Source of the DNA: Eledone cirrhosa
Taxonomy: Eukaryota
Assembly: GCA_964016885.1 (NCBI GenBank)
Contig: OZ024741.1
Coordinates: forward strand, 80,724,001 to 80,788,000
DNA: 64,000 nucleotides
Direction of reading: 5' to 3'
The translations under genes and the position numbers were made by a program. Every line of letters begins with the position of its first letter. Positions within the stretch are counted from its first letter, which is position 1. The notes below the pieces were generated by a model, which ran no database searches, had not been told where the DNA came from, and saw only the letters and a program-made list of their open reading frames with translations. Positions 1 through 25,200 of the stretch are shown here, in pieces.

Positions 1-118
1 TTCCATTAAGTCCAACAATAAATTTCAGATGAGTTCCATTAAACTTAATAGACAAATATTTGGTGAAAATATATAAGATTTCATGTATTCATGCATATTA
101 TTATGATTACTGTAAGAA

Positions 119-2815: not shown

Positions 2816-5800
2816 TCATCATCATCATCGTTTAACGTCCATCTTCCACGCTTGCATGGGTTTGGACGAGAGTTTTCCCACTTGAGGCAAGATTGGTTGT
2901 CATGCTCGTATAGGACTGTCTGGCGGGTTTTCTATGGCTGGATGCCTTTCCTAACACCAACCACATTTACAGTGTGGACTGGGAGGTTTTTACCGTGTTA
3001 CCTACACGGCCACATTACAGCGTGGACTGTGTGTTTTTTTTGTCGTGACACCTACACATCTGGCGGGTTTTCTATGGCTGGGTGCCCTTCCCAACACCAA
3101 CCACGTTTACAGTGTTTACTGGGAGGTTTTTACCGTGTTACCTACATGGCCACATTACAGCGTGGACTGTGTGTTTTTTGTTGTGACACCTACACAACCT
3201 CATTTATTTAGGACTGGATGTTGTGGTACCAACATAGCTTCACATTTAAGGGGATGGTGTGGATGGGGTGGGGGTAGTGGGACGGGGGTGTATTTTGTTA
3301 GAGGTGCCTACGGACTAGGTTTCGCTTTGTACTTAGGCAAGGCAGGTCTTCTGTATAACTGTCTAGCGCCAAAGCTCTCGGTCCAGTGACATTGTCTTGG
3401 AGAGGTGTAAGTGTGTGAGGTTGGAATTTATCAAGTCGTCCCAGGTTTTTCTGGGTCTGCCTACTCCGTGGCTACCGTCTATTTTTATCGCCCTGCACTT
3501 TTTTATACAGCTATCGCCTTTCATGCGCATCACGTGACCGTACCAATGTAGTCTTCTCTCGAGTAAACAACATCTGATCCCTCTTATTCTTAATTTCTCC
3601 CTTAGTTCGTTTATGCTTTGCCGTTCACGTATATTACTGTTACACATCCAGTGGAGCATGCAAGCTTCGTTTCTCTCCAGTCTGCGTATATCCTCTGTAC
3701 ACAATGCCCAGGTCTCATTGCCATGTAACATTGCTGTTCGTATGCAGGCATCATACAGCCTGCCTTTCATTTTTAGAGAGAACCCTTTAGCGGCCAATAG
3801 TGGTATAAGCTCTCTGAACTTTTTCCATCTCGTTCTGACTCTAGCTACTGTACTTTCAGAGCACCCTACCCCACTGCTGATTTTGTCACCCAGGTAACTG
3901 AAGGTGTCCACTATTTCTATAGAACCATCTGTGCAATGGAATGATCTAGTATTCTGTGGGCACTTGCTGCTACTTATTGCACCAGAGCACTGGCCACATA
4001 TAAAATCTATATTCTTAGTTAGCTTATCTGTGATCCCACTACATCTTTTATGCACCCATACTTTGCATTTGGGACATAAAATAGAGTTTCTGCCTACTCC
4101 TTTCCTACACACTGAGCATGGCCATTTCCCAGATGGGACCGGTGCCCTATTTTCCTTCCTACAAACTAGAATTTTAGTCTTAGACAAGTTAACTTTAAGG
4201 CCTTTTGATTCTAGGCCATGCTTCCATGTTTGGAATTTCTTCTCTAGTTCAGCCATTGATTCAGCTATGAGCATTAGATCATCTGCATATAGGAGTTCCC
4301 ATGGGCAGCCGGTCTTGAACTCCTCTGTTATAGTCTGAAGGGCAATAGTAGGGGGGTCTAAGGACGGAGCCCTGATGAACACCAACTTTTACGCTAAACT
4401 CTTCACTATATTCGTTGTTAATTCTAACCTTGCTGACTGTTTCATTATACATGGCTTGTATAGCTCTCACAAGCCATTCATCAACACCTAGTTTTCTAAG
4501 AGCCCACCAGATAATGGAGTGGGGGACTCTGTCAAAGGCTTTCTCCAAGTCAACAAAAGCTAAGTATAGGGGTTTACTTTTAGCTAGGTACTTCTCCTGT
4601 AGTTGTCGTACAATGAAAAGAGCGTCTGTTGTACTTTTACCTGACACAAACCCGAACTGCATTTCGTCTAGATCAATTCGCTCTCTGACTAGTTGCGCTA
4701 TTCCTTTTTCTGTGACCTTCATGACCTGGTCAATTAATTTAATGCCTCTATAGTTTCCCCTATCTAAGGCATCACCTTTACCCTTGTAGCAGTTAATGAT
4801 TATGCTGCTGTGCCAGTCCTTCGGAACGACCCCATTCTGTATGACATGGTTTACTATCCGGGTGACCATAGTGTGTCCCATCGTTCCAGATGCTTTCAGC
4901 ATTTCAGCAACTATTTCCGAAGGCCCGGCCGCCTTGCCCATCTTCATGTCTTTGATCGCCTTACTTATTATACTACCTTCAACTTGCACTGCTGGTCCCT
5001 CTATTGGGTCGATGTGGGGGAGACTGTCTTTCTCCCAATTATTCTCTATAATAATAGTGTTTACAACAGACACTCTGTCACGTCTCCTGGTAAGGATATA
5101 ATCTACCTGGCTTGTGTGTTCCCCCGATCTATAGGTGATCAAGTGATTGTCTCGTTTTTTGAAGTTAGTGTTACAGATAGTTAGGTTATTTGCGTCAGAG
5201 AATTCCAGGATTCTGGAGCCTTCCTCATTTCTAGTACCAAACCCATAGCCTCCGTGGATTCCGTCATAGCCGTCACAATGTTGTCCAACGTGACCATTTA
5301 GGTCGCCAGCGTTAACTATGTAGTCACTGTCGGTTATTTGGGAGGTCTTTTATAACGCCAGGCAGTCCGGATTGTGGTGCATATGCAGATATTATTGTCA
5401 TAGTAGTTCTATTGAGGACAAGTCTTATTTTAATTATTCTGTCGTTCACTCTATTTATGTCTATTATCTTATCTGCCCACTTTTCTGCTACCATGATTCC
5501 TACTCCACCCCGCCCATTGTCATTTCCCACCCAGAAAAGCTTATAGCATCGTTCTTTACCCACAATGAATCTAGCAGACCCACCCCTCCACCTGGTCTCT
5601 TGAATACAACAAACATCGACCTCCTTACGTTCAAGCATTTCTACAACCTCGTTAGAGCGACCCTTTAAGGTGCCTACATTCATGGTACCAACTCTGAAGT
5701 TTTGGATTGCGTTTGGAAGGTGGGGCGCAGGGGGGGGGGGAGTATGTTAGTCATCCGCGGCCGAAACAAAGAGGAGTCCTTGCATTCTCGTCCGGCTGCA

Positions 5801-5922
5801 TGAGGTGAATTTGTCTTTATCTTTGGCATTGTCACTGAGTGTCCAGATTTTTTCTTTTCAAACTCTCCAGAATTCCGTAGTTCATCCATCATATCGAAAG
5901 GCAACCAGGTAAGTGATAGCAT
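2816..5922 (-). mobile_element. RTE-clade LINE (APE endonuclease + RT), internally deleted and frameshifted
   Basis: APE motifs (MNVGTLKG, CCIQETRW, ISAYAPQ, GDLNGHVG, VDYIL) and RT motifs (NYRGIKL, AFVDLEKAFDRV, GVHQGS, LLYADD, RRLHWYGHV, GRPRKTW). 3' end GGACGTTAAACGATGATGATGA at 2816-2840. The 5' boundary is uncertain and may reach ~6257. Confidence 0.95.
2919..3196. repeat. 140-bp tandem duplication in the RTE 3' UTR
   Basis: TCTGGCGGGTTTTCTATGGCTG...GTGACACCTACACA starts at 2919 and again at 3059. Confidence 0.9.
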
Positions 5923-6257
5923 AGGCCGCTGACTTATGATTGGCCCACGTAATAATGGTGGTGTGTGGGGGCAGGTGGGAGGGATATTGGGTAGTTAGCG
6001 AGAAGGTTAAGGTTTAAATAAGATCCCCGTATTTTGGGCATAATTTAACAAACATAAAAAATACAAGATTTGTTTTGAAAAATACGCTAGAATTATCGAA
6101 TAGAAAAGCAAAGATTGGATTCTGGGAGAAATGATACAGATTGATGAATGGACTAGGGAATTAAAATGGTGAGAAGAGTGAAGAAATATTTGTACGTTAC
6201 ATTACACCGTGATAGCAGCCTAGTCTGAATAGGGTTGGCGATTTTTGAGGTGTATAT

Positions 6258-6609
6258 ATGTAAAGAGCTGTAACTAAATACCAGAAGGCATTGGGTTTGA
6301 TACTCCATTGATTCTGTCAATTTAGAATCGATAACGTGAAATGCAGGCACCTGGCCCATTTAAGAGGTCAGTAGCACCAATCAAATACTGACTTAGTCTA
6401 TATATATATATTAGTGTATATATATATATGTGCTTTCCCTGCTTGAAAGGGTTGGATGGGTCATCATAGATTAAGTCAGTATTTGATTGGTGCTACTGAC
6501 CTCTTAAATGGGCCAGGTGCTTGCATTTCACGTTATAGATTCTAAATTGACAGAATCAATGGAGTATCAAACAAAATGCCTTTTGGTATTTTGTTACAGC
6601 TCTTTACAT
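6258..6609. repeat. Inverted duplication, 144-bp arms with 64-nt spacer
   Basis: 6258-6401 is the reverse complement of 6466-6609 with a few mismatches. This explains the twin ORFs MGQV.AFHVIDSKLTESMEYQT on opposite strands. Confidence 0.92.
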
Positions 6610-6744
6610 TCCGAGTTCTGGACTCTACAGAGTGTACTGGGTGCATTTTATCGTGACACCAGCAACAAGAAGGTTGTCATGTCTTTGACACAACTGAAGA
6701 TTCATTCTCTCAACCCTTTGTTTGGCATGCTTTCTTAACAAAAA

Positions 6745-6935
6745 ATAACTATTGGTCCCTAATTGAGGCACAAGGTCAGCAACTTTGGGGAGTGGGAGGT
6801 GGAAGCCGATTATATCAACCCCAGTACTTGACTGGTACTTTATTTTATCAGCCCTGGAAACAGGAAAGGTAAAGTTGACCGGAATGGGATTTGAACTCAG
6901 TATGTAAAGAGCTGTAACTAAATACCAGAAGGAAT
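6745..6935 (-). mobile_element. tRNA-derived SINE, older copy
   Basis: Reverse complement contains CTGAGTTCAAATCCC and ACTTTACCTTTC..ATAAAATAAAGTACCAGTCAAGTACTGGGG. Confidence 0.75.
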
Positions 6936-6984
6936 TTAGAATCTATAACTAAGAATAAGCCTTCATTAGTAGACACTGAACATA

Positions 6985-7410
6985 GAAGACATGTAGCTCT
7001 GCTCTCCATGTAGCACCCCCAGCTTTACACCGTACTTCCATGTAGCCCTGCTCCCAACACACTGTATTCCCATGTAGCACCTCCATACATTGCATTTCCA
7101 TGTAGCCCTGCCCCTCACACACTATTCCTATGTAGTACCCCATACACATTGTATAACCAGGTGGCTCCCTTACACTCTACCCCCATGTAGCTCTGCTCAC
7201 ACACCGTATCTACATGTAGCCCTCTTCACATGCCGTATCTCCATGTAGCCTTGTTCCTATGCACACACTGTATCCCTAACACACTATCTTCTGTATCCCC
7301 TACACACTATCTTCATGTAACTCTCTTCACACTCATATTGTATCCTCATGTAGTCTTGCCTCCAACCCTACACACACACTGTATCCCTCATGCAGCACCC
7401 ACCACACATA
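6985..7410. repeat. Degenerate minisatellite (CATGTAGC/ACAC/GTATCC units)
   Basis: Recurring CCATGTAGCC and ACACACTGTAT motifs at roughly 20-35 nt spacing. Confidence 0.75.
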
Positions 7411-17493: not shown

Positions 17494-20400
17494 GTAAGAA
17501 TTCACTTATATTTACAGTGCAATATGCACACTCTATAAAGTGATGGGTGTTAGAAAGGACAGCCAACTGTAGAAACCAAGTCAAAATTGGAATATGTGAA
17601 TGAGGGAATCACTAGCTCTCATACAACAAGCACACTCTATAAAGTAGTAGGTATTAGAAAGGACATCCAGGTGTAGAAACCATGCCAAAATTGGAATGTA
17701 TGAATGAGGAGGTCAGTAGCTCTGAATAAGAACAGACACAGATCATTATGACTCCTCTAATAAAGTGGACATAAAATGAAGATAATGATATAATTGGCAT
17801 GTAAACAATAACGCAGTGTATTGGCAGTATTGTTAGAGTGCTTAGCAGTATTTGTACTCTATACTCTGAGTTCAAATATAACCAAGGTCAACTTTGTCTT
17901 TCATCCTATTGGGGTTAATAAATTAAGTACCAGGGATTTGTGGAATTTCTAGAGAATTGGACAAGATTCCTTGAAGTATCTGTGTCAGCTCTTTGCATTC
18001 TGAGTTCCAATTCTGCCTAGATGCTGATGACCAAGGTTAATCATAACACATCAATCTCTTCCCCCCCCCCCCCATTCTCTCTTCCTTGTCTACATGAAGC
18101 TGTCCCCCATTAGTTTCCATTCTGTACATAGCCTTGTTCATTCGTTACCATATGTTCATACCACGTACTACACCCACTTCTATTTTCTCTTCATATATTT
18201 TACAATGTCTTGTACATTTGTTTGTTCTCTTACTCATTGACAAGCTCCTCTACCATTTTCAGTGATTCCAGTTTGATATATTATATTTGTACTTTTAGTT
18301 GTATATAACGACAGGGTTCTGCTTTCAATGTAATTTTCAGTGCGACCGTCCACTCTGCAAACAATTCGTCCCAAGAAGAAAATTAAGCCCAATGTTGAGT
18401 TATTTGATGATGAGGACTTTGATGGTGACAGCTGCACTCCTCCAGTTGACTGTATTTTGGGGGATATAGATGGTCTCCACACTCCAGACGATCTTGACAC
18501 TCCTGAAGAAATTGACCCAGAAGGGTTGGAAGTTGATTGGGAAAGTATGTTATATTATTTTGCATTATATTCTTTAACTGGTTTCAGTTGTTAGACTGTT
18601 GCCATGCTGCGACAGCATTGCATTTAAGAGATTTAGTTGATTATATCAACCTCAGTACTTATTTTATCAATCTTTGTTTATCGAACAGCTAGGTTATAGA
18701 ACATATAAACAAACAGTAAAGGTAAACATAGCTAAGGACACATACACACATATATGATGGGTTTCCACACAGTTTCTGTCTACCAAATTTTAATCACAAA
18801 GCATTGGTCAGCTTTCCAAGGGGCTCTGCAGTGTTGACTGAACATGAAACCATGTGGTTCTGAAACAAATTCCTTAACCACACAACTGTGACTACACCCA
18901 TATACATACATATATGTATATAGAAATCTGTCAGAGAATCATTCTGTCATTTCCATAACAGAAATCCGATGAGCTTTCGATTCCAGAGTCGAGTCCGATT
19001 GATACAGATCGAACTTTGAGCTGATCAATCGCGAAATGCCTCAATAAACGTAATGAAGATTTAACACCTTGTCCTTTTTATTACACACACACATACATAT
19101 ATTCCTTATGTATAATTATTTTTATTTTTCTGTGTGTATCAGATTTAGAATAGGTACACTATCTTTCTGTGCCATAAGCAGCAACTAAAAGGGTTGGTGC
19201 CAGGAAGGGCATCCAGCTGTAAAACATTGCCTCTTTGAAAATGACCCTGTGATGAGTATGAAGCCTTATTGTAATATTTTCTTTGCAATTCTTTCAGGTG
19301 AAACTCCTCTTGAATCACCCAATACCATTCCTGAATACACTGCTGAACAAGAGAAAGCTGATTCTAAACACTGGAAATCTATTGTTATTGGTGAAAAGCA
19401 TTTCCGTATTGACATGAAAGTAGTGGAACCTTACAAAAAGATATTATCCCATGGAGGTAAGGGTTATGTTGTTTTGCCATTTCTACCTACATATAATCAT
19501 TATTGTCTGGTCTGCAAGAGAGAAGATTGTATCAGTATGAATATGTGAATGAGGTGGTTGGGTTATGTGTTGAAGAAATATAAAATGACTGGGTGAAAGG
19601 AATAACACTAGTGATGAATATTGTGAAGAGAGATAGAATTAGATGTTTGGGTCATGTGTTGAGGAAGTATGAAAAATGAAAAACATTCAGCGTGATCCTT
19701 TGAATATAAGCAGTCTATCCAACTGACTTCTAAACAGTTTCTGCTTACCCAATTTCACTTACAAGGCTTGGGTCAACCCAAAGCTATAATAAAAGGCACT
19801 TACCTAAGATGCCACACAGTATGACCGAACTTGTAACCTCATGATTGCAAAGCAAACTACTGAATCATTCAACCAAATTGCATCCAAATTCAAGATATAT
19901 CAGATAAAGATAGTAAAACTATCTCTGTCTTATGTATCTAGAGTTTGTATTCAACAATATTCTAGCTATTGAGTCCTTATTGATCACAAAAAGTAGGTTC
20001 TGTACAAATTAGAAGTACTGTGTAATAACTCAAAATAGTTTTTCCTTTGTTGAATGCCATCTGTATTGATTGGAACTGAATTTCTGTGTCCTTTGTTGTA
20101 GCAATAAACCAGTTCTTGTGTTTTTTTTTCTGTTTTCTTTCTATTAGTTCAAGCTTCATTATTATTCCACCATCCTTTCTTTTATATTTCTAGCTTGGCA
20201 TTTTGCTGAATTCCTTTTATACTTTTTGGCAGTAAATGTTAACCCCTTTGGTACCAACTCATCTGACACCTCCTCCTTTGCTTTTTTCAGCATTTGTTAT
20301 CCTCACCATCATTTTTACTTTATAAAGTATAGTGATCAACTCTTATTACAATCATTTTCAGCATTTGGGACGTTCACATTTTCAAATTTGAAACACACCC

Positions 20401-22180
20401 AGTGCTTTCATCATCATCATCATCATCAACGGAACACGGACGTTAAACGTTGATGATGATGATGATGATGAAAGCACTGGGTGTGTTTCAAATTTGAAAA
20501 TGTGAACGTCCCAAATGCTGAAAATGATTGTAATAAGAGTTGATCACTATAGATAATATGTTGAAAGACATACAGAATTCAATTCCTTATAAGCTTTCTG
20601 TCCACTTTTCTGTCACTAAGGGTAATTTGCCCAATTTTCTCAACTATTATCTATAGTGTTCGACTTGTTTGGAGATGCTCACATTTTCAAATTTTCATAT
20701 ATGAATACATATGTATATAATCATCATCATCACTTCATGCCAATGTTCGCATGCCAACACAAGAGCAACAATGAAGTGTTCATTCTACTGACATGGCTAT
20801 AAAATTGAGGCTTGTTTGCATAATTGCGAACGAATCGAATGTTATTATTAATATTCGAAAAACTCAAATTACATTTATTGTATTCAGCCATGTAGAGCGA
20901 AATTTTCTTTTTTATTTGAATTTGGCAAAGCCGGCCATTTATTGCTCGTATATAGGAAACTGACTGGCCAGTCTGCTGATATGCAAATTTGGCTGATCAG
21001 TGGATCTGTTAATATGCAGATCCGACTGATCAGCTAGTCTGCTAATATGCAAATCAGGCCGATCAGTCACTGTGTATTTTTGAAAATAGCATATATTTTC
21101 ACTAGCTCTGACAGTTTGGCAGGTGAACAGTGAGCTGTACTGATGAAGGGTGATACCCAGACACATTAGTGTCTGCAGTTCTGTTCGCATGCCAACATAA
21201 GAGCATGAATGAAGTGTTCATTCTACTGACATGGCTATAACATTGAGGCTTGTTTGCATAATTGCAAACAAATCGAATGTTATTATTGATATTCGAAAAA
21301 CTCAGATTACATTTATATATAGAGAGATTAACCCTTTAGCATTTACATTACTCTGTATTTACTATGGTATTTACATTACTCTGTATTTACTATGGTAAAG
21401 GCTTTATCTCATGTAATTATCTCACATAATATCAAATCTATGAGATTTTTATATTATTTATTTTGAGAACAATACCTTTACATTGGTATGAGTGGCCAGT
21501 TACAGCTGGTTTGAAGAGAAAGAGGTGAGACAATTCTGGCCGGATATGGCCAGTTTAAATGCTAAAGGGTTAAGAAGAATTGAAGTCAGTGTTGCAGCAT
21601 AAGTACAAATTTTATTGGCATATTATAATTGTTTCAATATCGTTTAGCTTGGGTTACATGAGGTTTGTCCCAAAAGGTAGAGTGTTAATTTTCTTATGTC
21701 CGACATGGTAAGGCAACACCTCGTTGTATATAGGCATGTTAGTTATGACCTTGGCTGCATGTACATACATGTTTCAACATGATCGATTGAGTCAGTTGTG
21801 AGTTTTTGCTGTTTATGTACAGACGTGTTTATAACCTCTGTTACATTTGTAATGCAGAAAAATATCAAACAACAGTATGCAATCAAATTTTCTGTGAAAC
21901 TCAACAGCCTACCACCAAAATTTAATTCTTGAACATGGAGATGCCATTCTATCGAAAATCATTTTGGAACTGTGGAAAACATACAAAAAAATTGTAACCA
22001 ATGAGTTAAGGAGACACACAGAAAAGGACTTCTGGTACTGTTAAAATCAATGGAATAAACATTAGAACCACTGTGACTCCCCAGTGGTAGTATTTTGAAG
22101 GAGATAACTTGTAATTTCATGTCTAATTTACATTTAAATATAACATCAGTACCCTTACTTTTGGAACAAACCTTGTGTGA

Positions 22181-22211
<31 letters not shown>

Positions 22212-25200
22212 AAACACACACACACACACATATATATATATACACATACACTTATGGAGGCACATGGCTTAGTGGTTAGAGCATTGGCCTTGCAATCGAA
22301 AGGTTGTGAGTTCAATTCTCAGACTGGGTGATGTGTTGTTTCCTTGAGCAAGACACTTTATTTCACATTGCTCCAATTTACTCAGCTGTAGAAATGAGAT
22401 GATAGGGACTGAGGTCCTTATCATTCCACTGTAAAGTGGTCGTGGAGGTGCCACGGCAAAAAAGCACCCAGCACTCACTGTAAATGAGGTTGGTGTTAGG
22501 AAGGGCATCCAGCTGTAGAAATCAAGCCAGAATCAGTTCCCGTCCCACCCTTGCAAGCAGGGAAAAGCGGACGTAAAATGAAATGATGATGATACATACA
22601 AAGGGAGGAAGAGATTCAGAAAGGGAAGGAGATGAAGACCATACTGTTGATAGAGAATACAAATTCCTAGGATGGATGAAAGTATTTAAATTACTCCCTA
22701 TACCCACATTTTATCTTGCATTTATGTTCCAAGAATTTTAAAATGTTTTGTCTGAGTGTAGTGTTTGTGTGATAGCTGGACAAAAAAGCTATACAGTTAA
22801 TATAATATAGATTATTATTTTCTGCTCCAGGCTATATGGGTGAAGATCTCAATGCGATCATTGTGTTTTCTGGTTGTTTCCTTCCTGATCGAGGACGTAA
22901 AGATTATAACTATGTCATGGATAATCTTTTCTTGTGAGTTCAAATGAAAATTTTTTCTTTTCATTATCATTATTTAATATCTATTTTCTCTGCTTGCATA
23001 GGTTAGATGGATTGTCATATGCTGAGACCTGACCAGTCTTGCTGGGATGCTCTGTTTTAGCTTTTTCTATGGTTGGATGTTTTTTCTAACACCAACCACT
23101 TTACAGCATGTACTGGGAGCATGGTTTTCTATGGTTGGATGGATGCTCTTCCTAACACCAACAATTTCACTGCATGTACTGAGAGCATTTTTCATGACCC
23201 TGGCACAACCACTTTACAGGTTGGACTGGGTGCTTTTCATCATGGTACCAGCGCAACCGCCTTACAGGCTAGACTGGGTGGTTTTCATTATGGCAGAAAC
23301 GCTACCACCTTACAGGAAGGACTGAGTGCTTTTTATTGTGGCACTAGCACTGCCACCTTACAGGTTGTACTGAATGCGTTTCATTGGAACACCATCTCTA
23401 CCACCTTACAGAGTGAGCTGGCTGTGTTTTATCATTATTACATTAACTGATTTATGCCATTCAAATCTAAATGTTTTGCATTTATTTTCTTGATCAAATA
23501 CTTTTTACAAAGTAAAGTTAACCCTTTTGTTACCATATTTCTAATCAATGCCTATGTGTTTCAAATCATTTAGAAAATGGACAATTTAGTGATGCAGCTT
23601 AGCTTTTTTATTATTATGATGATATTTGGAACATAACTTAAAGATTCTTACATAAAATTAAGATAGAAGGTTTTTTGATAAATACAAACACTTTAAAACA
23701 AGCAGTTTTATTGGAGCAGTTTCAGACAGTTTGGTATCAAAATGATTAGAGATGAGGTTATATTGTGTAAAAAGCAAATTAAATCTCAGCAAGTCATTAT
23801 GGAAGCATTGTATGATCCCTGGTAGTGATTTTTGTCAAGTTTGATTTATTAACATTTTTCAGGTTTAATTGATGAATATAATTTTTTTCAATGATTTTTG
23901 TGTTGATGTTCAGGGTTAGGGACCACACACATGACAAGTAGTTTAGTTTCAGAGAGTTAATATCTTACAGATGTTAATATCTGAAACTTGGTTGAATAAA
24001 TACCTCTCAATATTTAACTTTTGTTGATTGTTTTGTTGAATGTTCCTAACTGTCTCATGATTTTCCAGCAACATATATGTAACAAATATCTCAATATGAT
24101 TTTCTGACAACAGATATGTAACAAGTACTCTAGAGCAGCTTGTGGCCGAGGATTATATGATTGTGTTCTTTCATGGTGCCACACCTCGCCGACAGATGCC
24201 TGGCTTCAGCTGGCTGAAGCGTTGCTACCAAATGATTGATCATAGGTAACTGTACATGATAGATTCAATCATGCATGTTTATTCCCAAGTGTGTGTGTGT
24301 GTGTGTGGAAACAAAAATGAAGCCATTAATAAAATTAAAGAATGCATTTAAGCTCACCTAAATGAAGAAATCAATTGGTTTCTGATTGATAACTGATTGA
24401 TCTTAATGATATTCAATTTAACTCAGAATATCCTGTACTACATGAAACTACATTACTAAGTCATTTTTGAAATGTACAAAGCAGCACTATGACTGCATGA
24501 CGGTCTTTACTTTAGTTCACTGAAAAGTTTGACAACAATCTGTCCTTTAGTGAAGACACTATAAACATTTTAATTAACAAACTCTTTATTGGCATAAAAT
24601 AGGTTGAGGAATTGGCTGAACCAGTAGAGCATTGGATTAAATGTTTTACATTATTTAGTTTCATTCCTCTATATCAAACTTTTCCAAACAAGTATCAGCT
24701 TTTATTGAAATGGATTTCCTCGAAGAATGGTGACCCAATCCTTCTCTTTCAGAGTCAGTTGTAATCGAGTATGACTTGGTGTTGATTAATTTTTTTTCTT
24801 TACAAATTATTATACTGTAGTTAAACAATGGAGAACACTTTATCAAACACACTTTACTTTTTCATGAGACTGTAGACCAAAACATTGACACAACCACACC
24901 TTCAGGTATTGCAGAATACAGTTGTCAGTGTGATAGATTTTAAGTATATTTGAAATTTGGCTTCTCTGTGGACCAATTAAACTCATGACTGGTGATGCGT
25001 GATATATTGAATTGTTTATTTATTAATTTCATTAATTTTGTATTGCTAAGAAACTTAATTAATGCGTCATGTCAAAATCTATTTTTAAAAAGTATGTTAC
25101 CAAAGTGAAAAGTTTGGTCAGCTCTGTGTGCTGGATAAATAATGTTTTCTGAAAAAACTTCAAAAGTGCTCACTTGAGTTTTATTTAATTCATTCTAGAT

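Follow-up and report, generated by a model that had tools for sequence, protein, structure and literature searches.

The 438-nt unit located in an intron of Eledone cirrhosa is a member of a dispersed repeat family, here called family A. We consider it fairly probable that this family is a high-copy, non-coding octopod retrozyme and that the whole chain applies, in which it is transcribed by RNA polymerase II (Pol II) from its own snRNA-type promoter, cleaves itself, circularises and is re-inserted by a Penelope-like reverse transcriptase (RT). An earlier note on this DNA had proposed this interpretation, which is supported, with transcription, cleavage, circles and the mobilising enzyme being predicted. 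The note had also named beforehand four findings that do not go with it: a single-copy unit, a consensus without an intact hammerhead core, a promoter box unlike the native PSEs of snRNA genes, and a unit that is simply the pseudo-LTR (pLTR) of a coding Penelope element. All four were checked, and none refutes it. In what follows, the window is the whole stretch of 64,000 nt that was analysed.

Window element and family A

Monomer positions (q) correspond to window positions minus 20878, q1-438 being 20879-21316 (Table 1). The 135-nt direct repeats described earlier (20744-20878 and 21182-21316, spacing 438) are present and 94% identical, and the 33-bp triple repeat carries ATGCAAAT at 20981, ATGCAGAT at 21014 and ATGCAAAT at 21047, as stated. 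The stem I rod and the further hairpins are also found: the fold of 21100-21210 has z = -4.4 and that of the 438-mer z = -9.8, and no shuffled sequence is as stable. The window copy comprises 1.3 units. Its core reads GACAC where the family reads GAAAC, and the 37-nt tail segment, terminal in other copies, is internal in this one. The note had placed the element within an intron, and it indeed lies in the sense orientation in intron 19457-22830. The two flanking exons are in frame and belong to a gene with a BNIP2 domain, and the one upstream of the intron is 98% identical to the Octopus bimaculoides prune homolog 2. The three sequencing runs that cover the intron are DNA of one sample and therefore hold no information on expression. 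As noted earlier, the unit has no credible open reading frame. The best candidate, a 75-aa antisense ORF across the 33-bp repeats, gave no Pfam match and was treated as a chance frame.

Table 1. Features of the family A copy in the window and of its host intron.
Feature	Window position	Strand	Remarks
Host intron GT..AG, prune-2/BNIP2 gene	19457-22830	+	Context only
Upstream partial unit, second pass, q304-438	20744-20878	+	94% identity to 21182-21316
Full 438-nt family A monomer	20879-21316	+	40/40 scored genome candidates align at 94-100% over nearly the whole length
37-nt Penelope-type tail segment, T-run at its end	20879-20915	+	Ends 42/143 arms, mode q37
33-bp repeat, three copies	20959-21067	+	Octamer-like box and TCAG core in each; triplication specific to family A
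Proximal octamer ATGCAAAT	21047-21054	+	Distance to the PSE 15 nt in A, B, C and D
PSE, matches native U1/U2/U4/U5 promoters	21062-21074	+	11.0 bits; family copy with the same 13 letters
TATA-like box at PSE+29/30	21091-21098	+	Natives at about +24..+34, mostly +26..+29
Predicted transcription start, probably A21121	21118-21121	+	PSE+56..59; native spacing -56..-59 in 16/16
Rod extending hammerhead stem I	21105-21204	+	Lower part upstream of the predicted start; B and C have equivalent rods of other sequence
Type I hammerhead	21134-21179	+	Stem I 21134-21139/21174-21179; core CTGATGA 21140-21146
Hammerhead stem II and GAAA box	21160-21163 (GAAA)		Stem II GGG/CCC closed by A.A; C21162 is a private mutation
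Hammerhead stem III and cut site	21173 (end of GTC)		Stem III self-complementary; predicted cut after C21173
First fixed 3' end TACATTTAT, then TA repeats	21308-21316	+	59/143 arms end at q438

Several other repeats are observed in the window. A 111-bp inverted repeat (20321-20558), 97% complementary with a 16-nt spacer, surrounds a (CAT)n tract; it resembles a local fold-back duplication and is a source of spurious miRNA hits. A very high-copy MITE-like element with 18-bp perfect terminal inverted repeats (21328-21573) is inserted 11 nt past the retrozyme end, and a tRNA-headed SINE-like repeat (22250-22590) shows the deepest coverage in the DNA runs. On the minus strand, the window also carries what we take to be a broken mariner-like transposase reading frame (1658-2673) and a broken RTE-like LINE reading frame (3363-5746).

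The unit is not single-copy. A genome search with the 438-nt sequence returned 3,848 candidates, the 40 scored of which are all near full length, 94-100% identical and spread over many contigs. The exact intact 34-nt hammerhead core occurs in 1,104 genome copies, the exact 3' 33-mer of the family gives 1,557 matches, and two exact cores one unit apart are found at 37 loci; reversed-pattern controls gave 0. Family A copies are dispersed as 0.2-1.8 units, the longest arm being 786 nt, and none of the 30 two-core loci retrieved, out of 37, has a third unit. The note had suggested a check for tandem copies; arrays of 3-6 units are seen in a sister family, family B.

The hammerhead core of the family is intact. 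Across 30 aligned copies it reads CTGATGA, A, GGG-TGATA-CCC, A, GAAAC, ATTAGT, GTC. The damage to the GAAA box recognised in the window copy is private to it, GAAAC being read in 28 of 30 aligned copies; at loci not selected on the core, the mutated base is A in 95/100 segments, and CUGAUGA, GAAA and GUC are kept in more than 90% of about 100 segments. Stem I has 6 bp, including three G.U pairs, and stem II has 3 bp above an A.A mismatch, which is non-standard at the base of this stem. Stem III and its loop are self-complementary, with a predicted duplex of -8.8 kcal/mol; passages of PMC4209133 describe this as the layout of hammerheads that cleave as dimers. Natural monomers, taken from cut to cut at 3 loci, fold as circles at z -4.4 to -6.1. 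Rfam gives no hammerhead match on the window element or on the A, B, C and D loci, where scores stay below its thresholds; the type I hammerhead claimed earlier is therefore based on its motif, its pairing and the sister families. Departures from the column majority amount to 2.2% at core positions and to about 3% at the others, so the A copies are decaying nearly neutrally, a point against the model.

A genome search with RF00163 brought up another hammerhead family (L077-L088), which shows no BLAST similarity to A. Its stem II is canonical, its targets are (TA)n, and it has inverted arms as well as a long upstream part rich in AT; no ORF lies within 1.5 kb, and it is possibly the 3' end of a Penelope element.

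The A.A mismatch, together with an alternative fold, in which the core is paired with loop 3 and which is predicted to be 6.2 kcal/mol more stable than the active fold, raises the question of whether the family A ribozyme is inactive or nearly so. The family would then spread via uncleaved RNA and template jumps of a Penelope RT, with no circles. The absence of arrays in A fits such a scheme, as does an anole Penelope-like element (PLE), which, according to part of PMC11167929, inserts in vitro without needing its hammerhead. However, a mismatch at the same place is found in most B copies and, as sections of PMC7229834 indicate, in the weakly active axolotl ribozyme, and 5' ends are enriched at the cut site, also in the second pass (see below). 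We judge an inactive ribozyme to be improbable.

Promoter and sister families

Sixteen distinct U1/U2/U4/U5 promoters, retained from 36 loci, served to build a PSE matrix. YCAGY at -56..-59, followed by T at +9, is common to all 16 of these native Pol II promoters, and a TATA-like run near -30 is found in most. The PSE-like box of the earlier note is a genuine match to an snRNA PSE, although its position was not right: the true start is 21062 (ATCAGT), 5 nt upstream of 21067, and with this shift the box matches the native U1/U2/U4/U5 PSEs. This is the best site in the element, and its 36-nt score is reached by 3/81,928 window positions. With the 13-nt core matrix, family A scores 11.0 bits, C 9.2, B 3.3-4.5 and D 2.9. 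For seven held-out Pol II loci the scores are 10.7-17.8 bits, two of these loci being near-identical to a training promoter, and the 16 natives score 5.7-19.3 when left out one at a time, B and D falling below all of them. Three pseudogene-like loci have -3.7 to -11.4 bits. The TATA-like box is offset from the PSE by +29/30 in A, +27 in B, +27 in C and +29 in D, and the predicted start at 21118-21121 lies about 53 nt before the cut site.

The octamer and PSE had been read together as an snRNA-type promoter. The PSE part of this claim stands; the octamer, in contrast, lies outside the Pol II snRNA promoters of this species (0/16), and an octamer-like box is present at -76..-78 in 3/3 distinct U6 promoters. 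The native upstream AATTA box (near -89) and the distal TTACCTCCCTT (near -260) are absent from the element, which carries the octamer repeats instead. The best 3' box site in the element has 3.6 bits, compared with 7.7-18.1 in 15/16 natives, and a candidate at q418-430 was rejected for its low score. Such a missing 3' box is a requirement of the proposed read-through transcription.

The octamer-like box could point to a U6-like promoter transcribed by Pol III, in which case the RNA would begin at about 21121 and end at the first T-run, the element being a hammerhead SINE that is reverse transcribed from its oligo(U) end. The TATGCAAATTAG of family B, identical to one U6 promoter over 12 nt, could be explained in this way, and so could the tail, whose end coincides with the first T4/T6 run, 220-230 nt downstream of the predicted start. 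However, the U6 promoters lack the ATCAGT core and score below 4 at best, and ten further U6-like loci do not exceed 4.0 bits. The octamer-to-TATA distance is 42-45 in the elements, whereas U6 has 46-48. The T6/T8 tract and the promoter are crossed by many copies and so are part of their templates; the presence of the T4/T6 runs inside copied templates argues against Pol III, as does the lack of a clear pile-up of 5' ends at +1. Transcription by Pol III is therefore unlikely in our estimate, and Pol II is preferred.

As a by-product, the octopod snRNA PSE and 3' box were defined. The native signals (L031-L076, L387-L396) comprise a PSE, ATCAGT..T, at -57, AATTA near -89, and TATA near -30 even in Pol II genes, with TTACCTCCCTT near -260 in U1/U2/U6 and a 3' box AAAATCAGAC. 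Octopod U6 genes exhibit an octamer-like box at -77 in place of the PSE core.

Three sister families share this promoter layout. Family B was first found beside PLE loci, and a pattern made of octamer, YCAG, core and GAAA, with A excluded, gave 11,668 matches (control 0), most of them B; among the first 100 listed, 98 are B-like, one is C and one is D. YCAG was part of the pattern by which B, C and D were discovered; the TATA offset, the T at +9 and the C|A at +57..59 were outside it. The octamer-PSE-TATA-hammerhead spacing is common to A, B, C and D, with 15 nt from octamer to PSE and TATA at +27..+30; C|A at +57..59 and a rod below stem I are further features of A, B and C. Only one octamer-like box is present in the inspected copies of B, C and D, with no triplication. 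The best alignment between A and B is the promoter (57 nt, 68%, E 8e-4), and the remainder barely aligns.

This conservation bears on whether the promoter is a relic or a weak helper, with the RNA supplied by host read-through, for instance of introns, which is the assumption of the current retrozyme model. The window copy is intronic and sense, B has a low PSE score, the promoter of A copies mutates at the background rate, and a 2020 review (PMC7761336) states in one of its passages that retrozymes do not seem to harbour promoters. Nevertheless, no other segment is as well conserved between A and B, which have diverged elsewhere, and the promoter spacing is kept in C and D; moreover, copies that decay after insertion are not expected to show selection. 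We regard a relic promoter as slightly less likely still than transcription by Pol III, and a working Pol II promoter remains the preferred reading.

The family B unit is about 480-510 nt long with internal (TA)n (e.g. L326:7180-8501 on the plus strand; L336; L337-L376). The family is very young, its copies being near-identical, and is a better experimental subject than A. Within its arrays, private variants are shared, including in the inverted arm. In two arrays (L336; C1:5540692-5543697), variants alternate with a period of two (units 1=3, 2=4), which suggests either a dimeric template or later unequal crossing-over. Stem III is palindromic in B, and most copies have a mismatch under stem II. 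Across 15 sequences, 95.9% of the cells of the B structure are paired, and stem I shows a G.U to U.G swap. The stem covariation that the note had proposed to examine is thin in this family: 2 pairs change on both sides, which is reached by 191/500 shuffles, the other test giving 3/500. In A, B and C, the part of the rod that lies upstream of the predicted start differs in sequence and yet pairs. Such pairs would form only in read-through or circular RNA. One family C copy (L367:1495-1660, minus strand) exhibits a perfect G-C stem II, a PSE of 9.2 bits and an inverted arm; the family D copy (L368:1550-1694, minus strand) is degenerate.

Insertion marks and template traces

The ends of family A copies were surveyed at 87 loci taken from the first 100 listed matches to the 3' pattern, all on contig C1, which gave 143 arms. 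The 3' end is at q438 in 59/143 arms; another 42/143 continue into the tail, mostly to q37, and the others end earlier. The two fixed 3' sites lie 37 nt apart, and the TACATTTAT motif and the tail are also present in family B. Both orientations occur in 61/87 loci, in the form of an inverted, 5'-truncated arm. TA repeats directly follow 103/132 3' ends, and the flanks of the insertions are mostly (TA)n. According to part of PMC8557442, a tail of 30-40 bp, partial tandems, an inverted truncated arm and a bias for microsatellites are marks of PLEs, and in the anole PLE described in sections of PMC11167929 the tail length is the distance between two internal RT start sites. The tail, the partial tandem and the inverted arm of a non-autonomous Penelope-type element are all present in family A. 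At one insertion (L006), the flanks are inverted copies over about 30 nt and not a direct target duplication.

GIY-YIG elements are abundant in this genome, with 10,596 candidates, of which 150 were scored. In one of them, an RT+GIY-YIG frame of 938 aa is open and includes a CGTC linker motif (C1:145868000-145876500, L316, ORF 4309-7122, minus strand), and the encoded protein is a candidate mobiliser. An origin of the unit as a pLTR detached from a coding Penelope element would draw on this abundance and on the tail, inversion and target features, which are as in PLEs. However, the unit wraps onto itself, from q438 to q1. A Penelope-type protein match lies near 15/237 A loci, and these matches belong to different families with no constant orientation or arrangement. 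In addition, the 40 Penelope-type GIY-YIG loci drawn from the 150 scored share no 3' ends with A, nor any sequence except inserted A copies. With no constant coding neighbour and no shared bodies, A is therefore not the pLTR of a coding element; this origin is largely refuted and very improbable. No autonomous partner element was identified among the 40 Penelope-type loci or beside the 237 A loci.

The earlier note gave the start of the insertion as 8 nt after the GUC site. This position is correct, but it is weak evidence alone because a quasi-palindrome begins there and attracts junctions. The raw 5' ends peak at q293-304 (24/143 arms), partly owing to this quasi-palindrome (q304-319), and the pile-up of 7 arms at q304 was set aside as largely an artefact of it. 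After removal of the 16/143 arms with ambiguous junctions, 9/77 at-risk arms end within 2 nt of the predicted cut site, q296, where about 2.4 are expected (median of 3.1% at other positions, p ~0.001). The sole position that outscores the cut site has 19 arms at risk. This excess rests on few arms and could be partly open to microhomology bias. Among second-pass 5' ends, 3/40 fall at q295-296 and 9/40 at q295-304. At the predicted start, 5' ends are not significantly enriched (8 at q230-248 among 98 arms).

Arms of up to 786 nt (1.8 units) cross the promoter twice, and the templates therefore exceed any transcript started inside a 1.3-unit copy. Tandem passes within A loci agree at 247/290 polymorphic calls (independence would give 175), as do inverted arms at 466/552 (319 expected), these pairs not being fully independent. 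A single haplotype per locus fits repeated copying of one monomer, which may be circular or held end to end.

These observations can be arranged in the following cycle. SNAPc and Pol II would start at about 21121 from the upstream promoter of a tandem and, with no strong 3' box, read into the next unit. Slow cleavage, probably involving two ribozymes as a dimer, would strip the 53-nt leader and free a 438-nt monomer that now contains the promoter, and this monomer would be ligated into a circle or held end to end. A GIY-YIG/RT protein would then nick (TA)n, prime internally at q438 or q37 on both strands, and run round the template, which would rebuild promoter-bearing tandems. The window copy, with its 1.3 units and mutated core, would be a dead-end product.

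Comparison with known systems

The Pol III promoter of the schistosome hammerhead satellite is of the tRNA type. As described in part of PMC2220036, this satellite is likewise a self-promoted hammerhead repeat in an invertebrate, but its promoter is a Pol III promoter, whereas the octopod family matches U1/U2/U4/U5 promoters. The likeness to PLEs (Neptune/Poseidon; portions of PMC8557442, PMC11167929 and PMC4209133) lies in two 3' ends 30-40 nt apart, partial tandems, an inverted 5'-truncated arm, microsatellite or AT-rich targets, and a hammerhead with an extra nucleotide after A9. Unlike PLEs, the octopod unit has no ORF, exhibits a full stem I rod in place of a minimal hammerhead, and has no sequence link to the coding elements examined.

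Metazoan non-LTR retrozymes, as far as sections of PMC7229834 describe them, are similar in many respects: a short non-coding unit (438 nt, within 150-450), a type I hammerhead with a weak stem III, thousands of copies, low GC, a stable predicted circle, and PLEs in the same genome. Judged by unit size, copy number and core, family A would be classed as a retrozyme, tandem arrays being found in B and not in A. It differs from the metazoan retrozymes in carrying a host-calibrated match to an snRNA promoter, in being dispersed as partial and near-double units and not as arrays, and in a core predicted to be blocked by self-pairing. The passages concerned in PMC7229834 propose PLEs as mobilisers of retrozymes, without proof; together with the transcribing machinery, the mobilising enzyme is one of two points left open on animal retrozymes in the parts of these papers concerned. 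The present family offers a host-calibrated promoter with a predicted start, as well as Penelope-type priming and cut-site marks, and the young family B and the intact RT-endonuclease ORF in the same genome provide a testable system. Moreover, PSE copies scattered in their thousands could be competitors for SNAPc, or transcription could begin at them within host genes. No cephalopod retrozyme or PSE-bearing invertebrate retrozyme was found described in the article texts searched; the supplements of PMC7229834 and PMC8557442 may list cephalopod repeats, and an excerpt of PMC6962438 lists hammerhead hits in giant squid without analysis.

On a broader and more tentative view, for which the chances seem to us a little short of even, octopods would harbour an old and diversified clade (at least 3 families, more than 12,000 ribozyme copies) of self-promoted circular-RNA retroelements. 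The promoter would lie inside the circle, the hammerhead would remove the capped leader and seal the circle, and a Penelope RT would make rolling copies, which is the design of satellite 2 in a mollusc. If this is true, capture of snRNA promoters may be what generally drives the high expression of retrozymes in animals, a role so far overlooked. The promoter of newt satellite 2 reportedly combines an octamer with a PSE. In satellite 2 of newts and salamanders, the hammerhead repeat contains its own Pol II promoter of the snRNA type, which drives it in the newt (part of PMC2220036, citing Coats et al. 1994), a combination predicted for the octopod families too. Its palindromic stem III, favouring cleavage as a dimer, is matched especially by family B. 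The differences are that the host is a mollusc and not an amphibian, that the PSE is the octopod's own, and that Penelope-type insertion marks are documented here; the likeness is one of description. By this analogy, the octopod family may be regarded as a variant of the metazoan retrozymes that resembles newt satellite 2, in which a precedent for an snRNA-type promoter exists.
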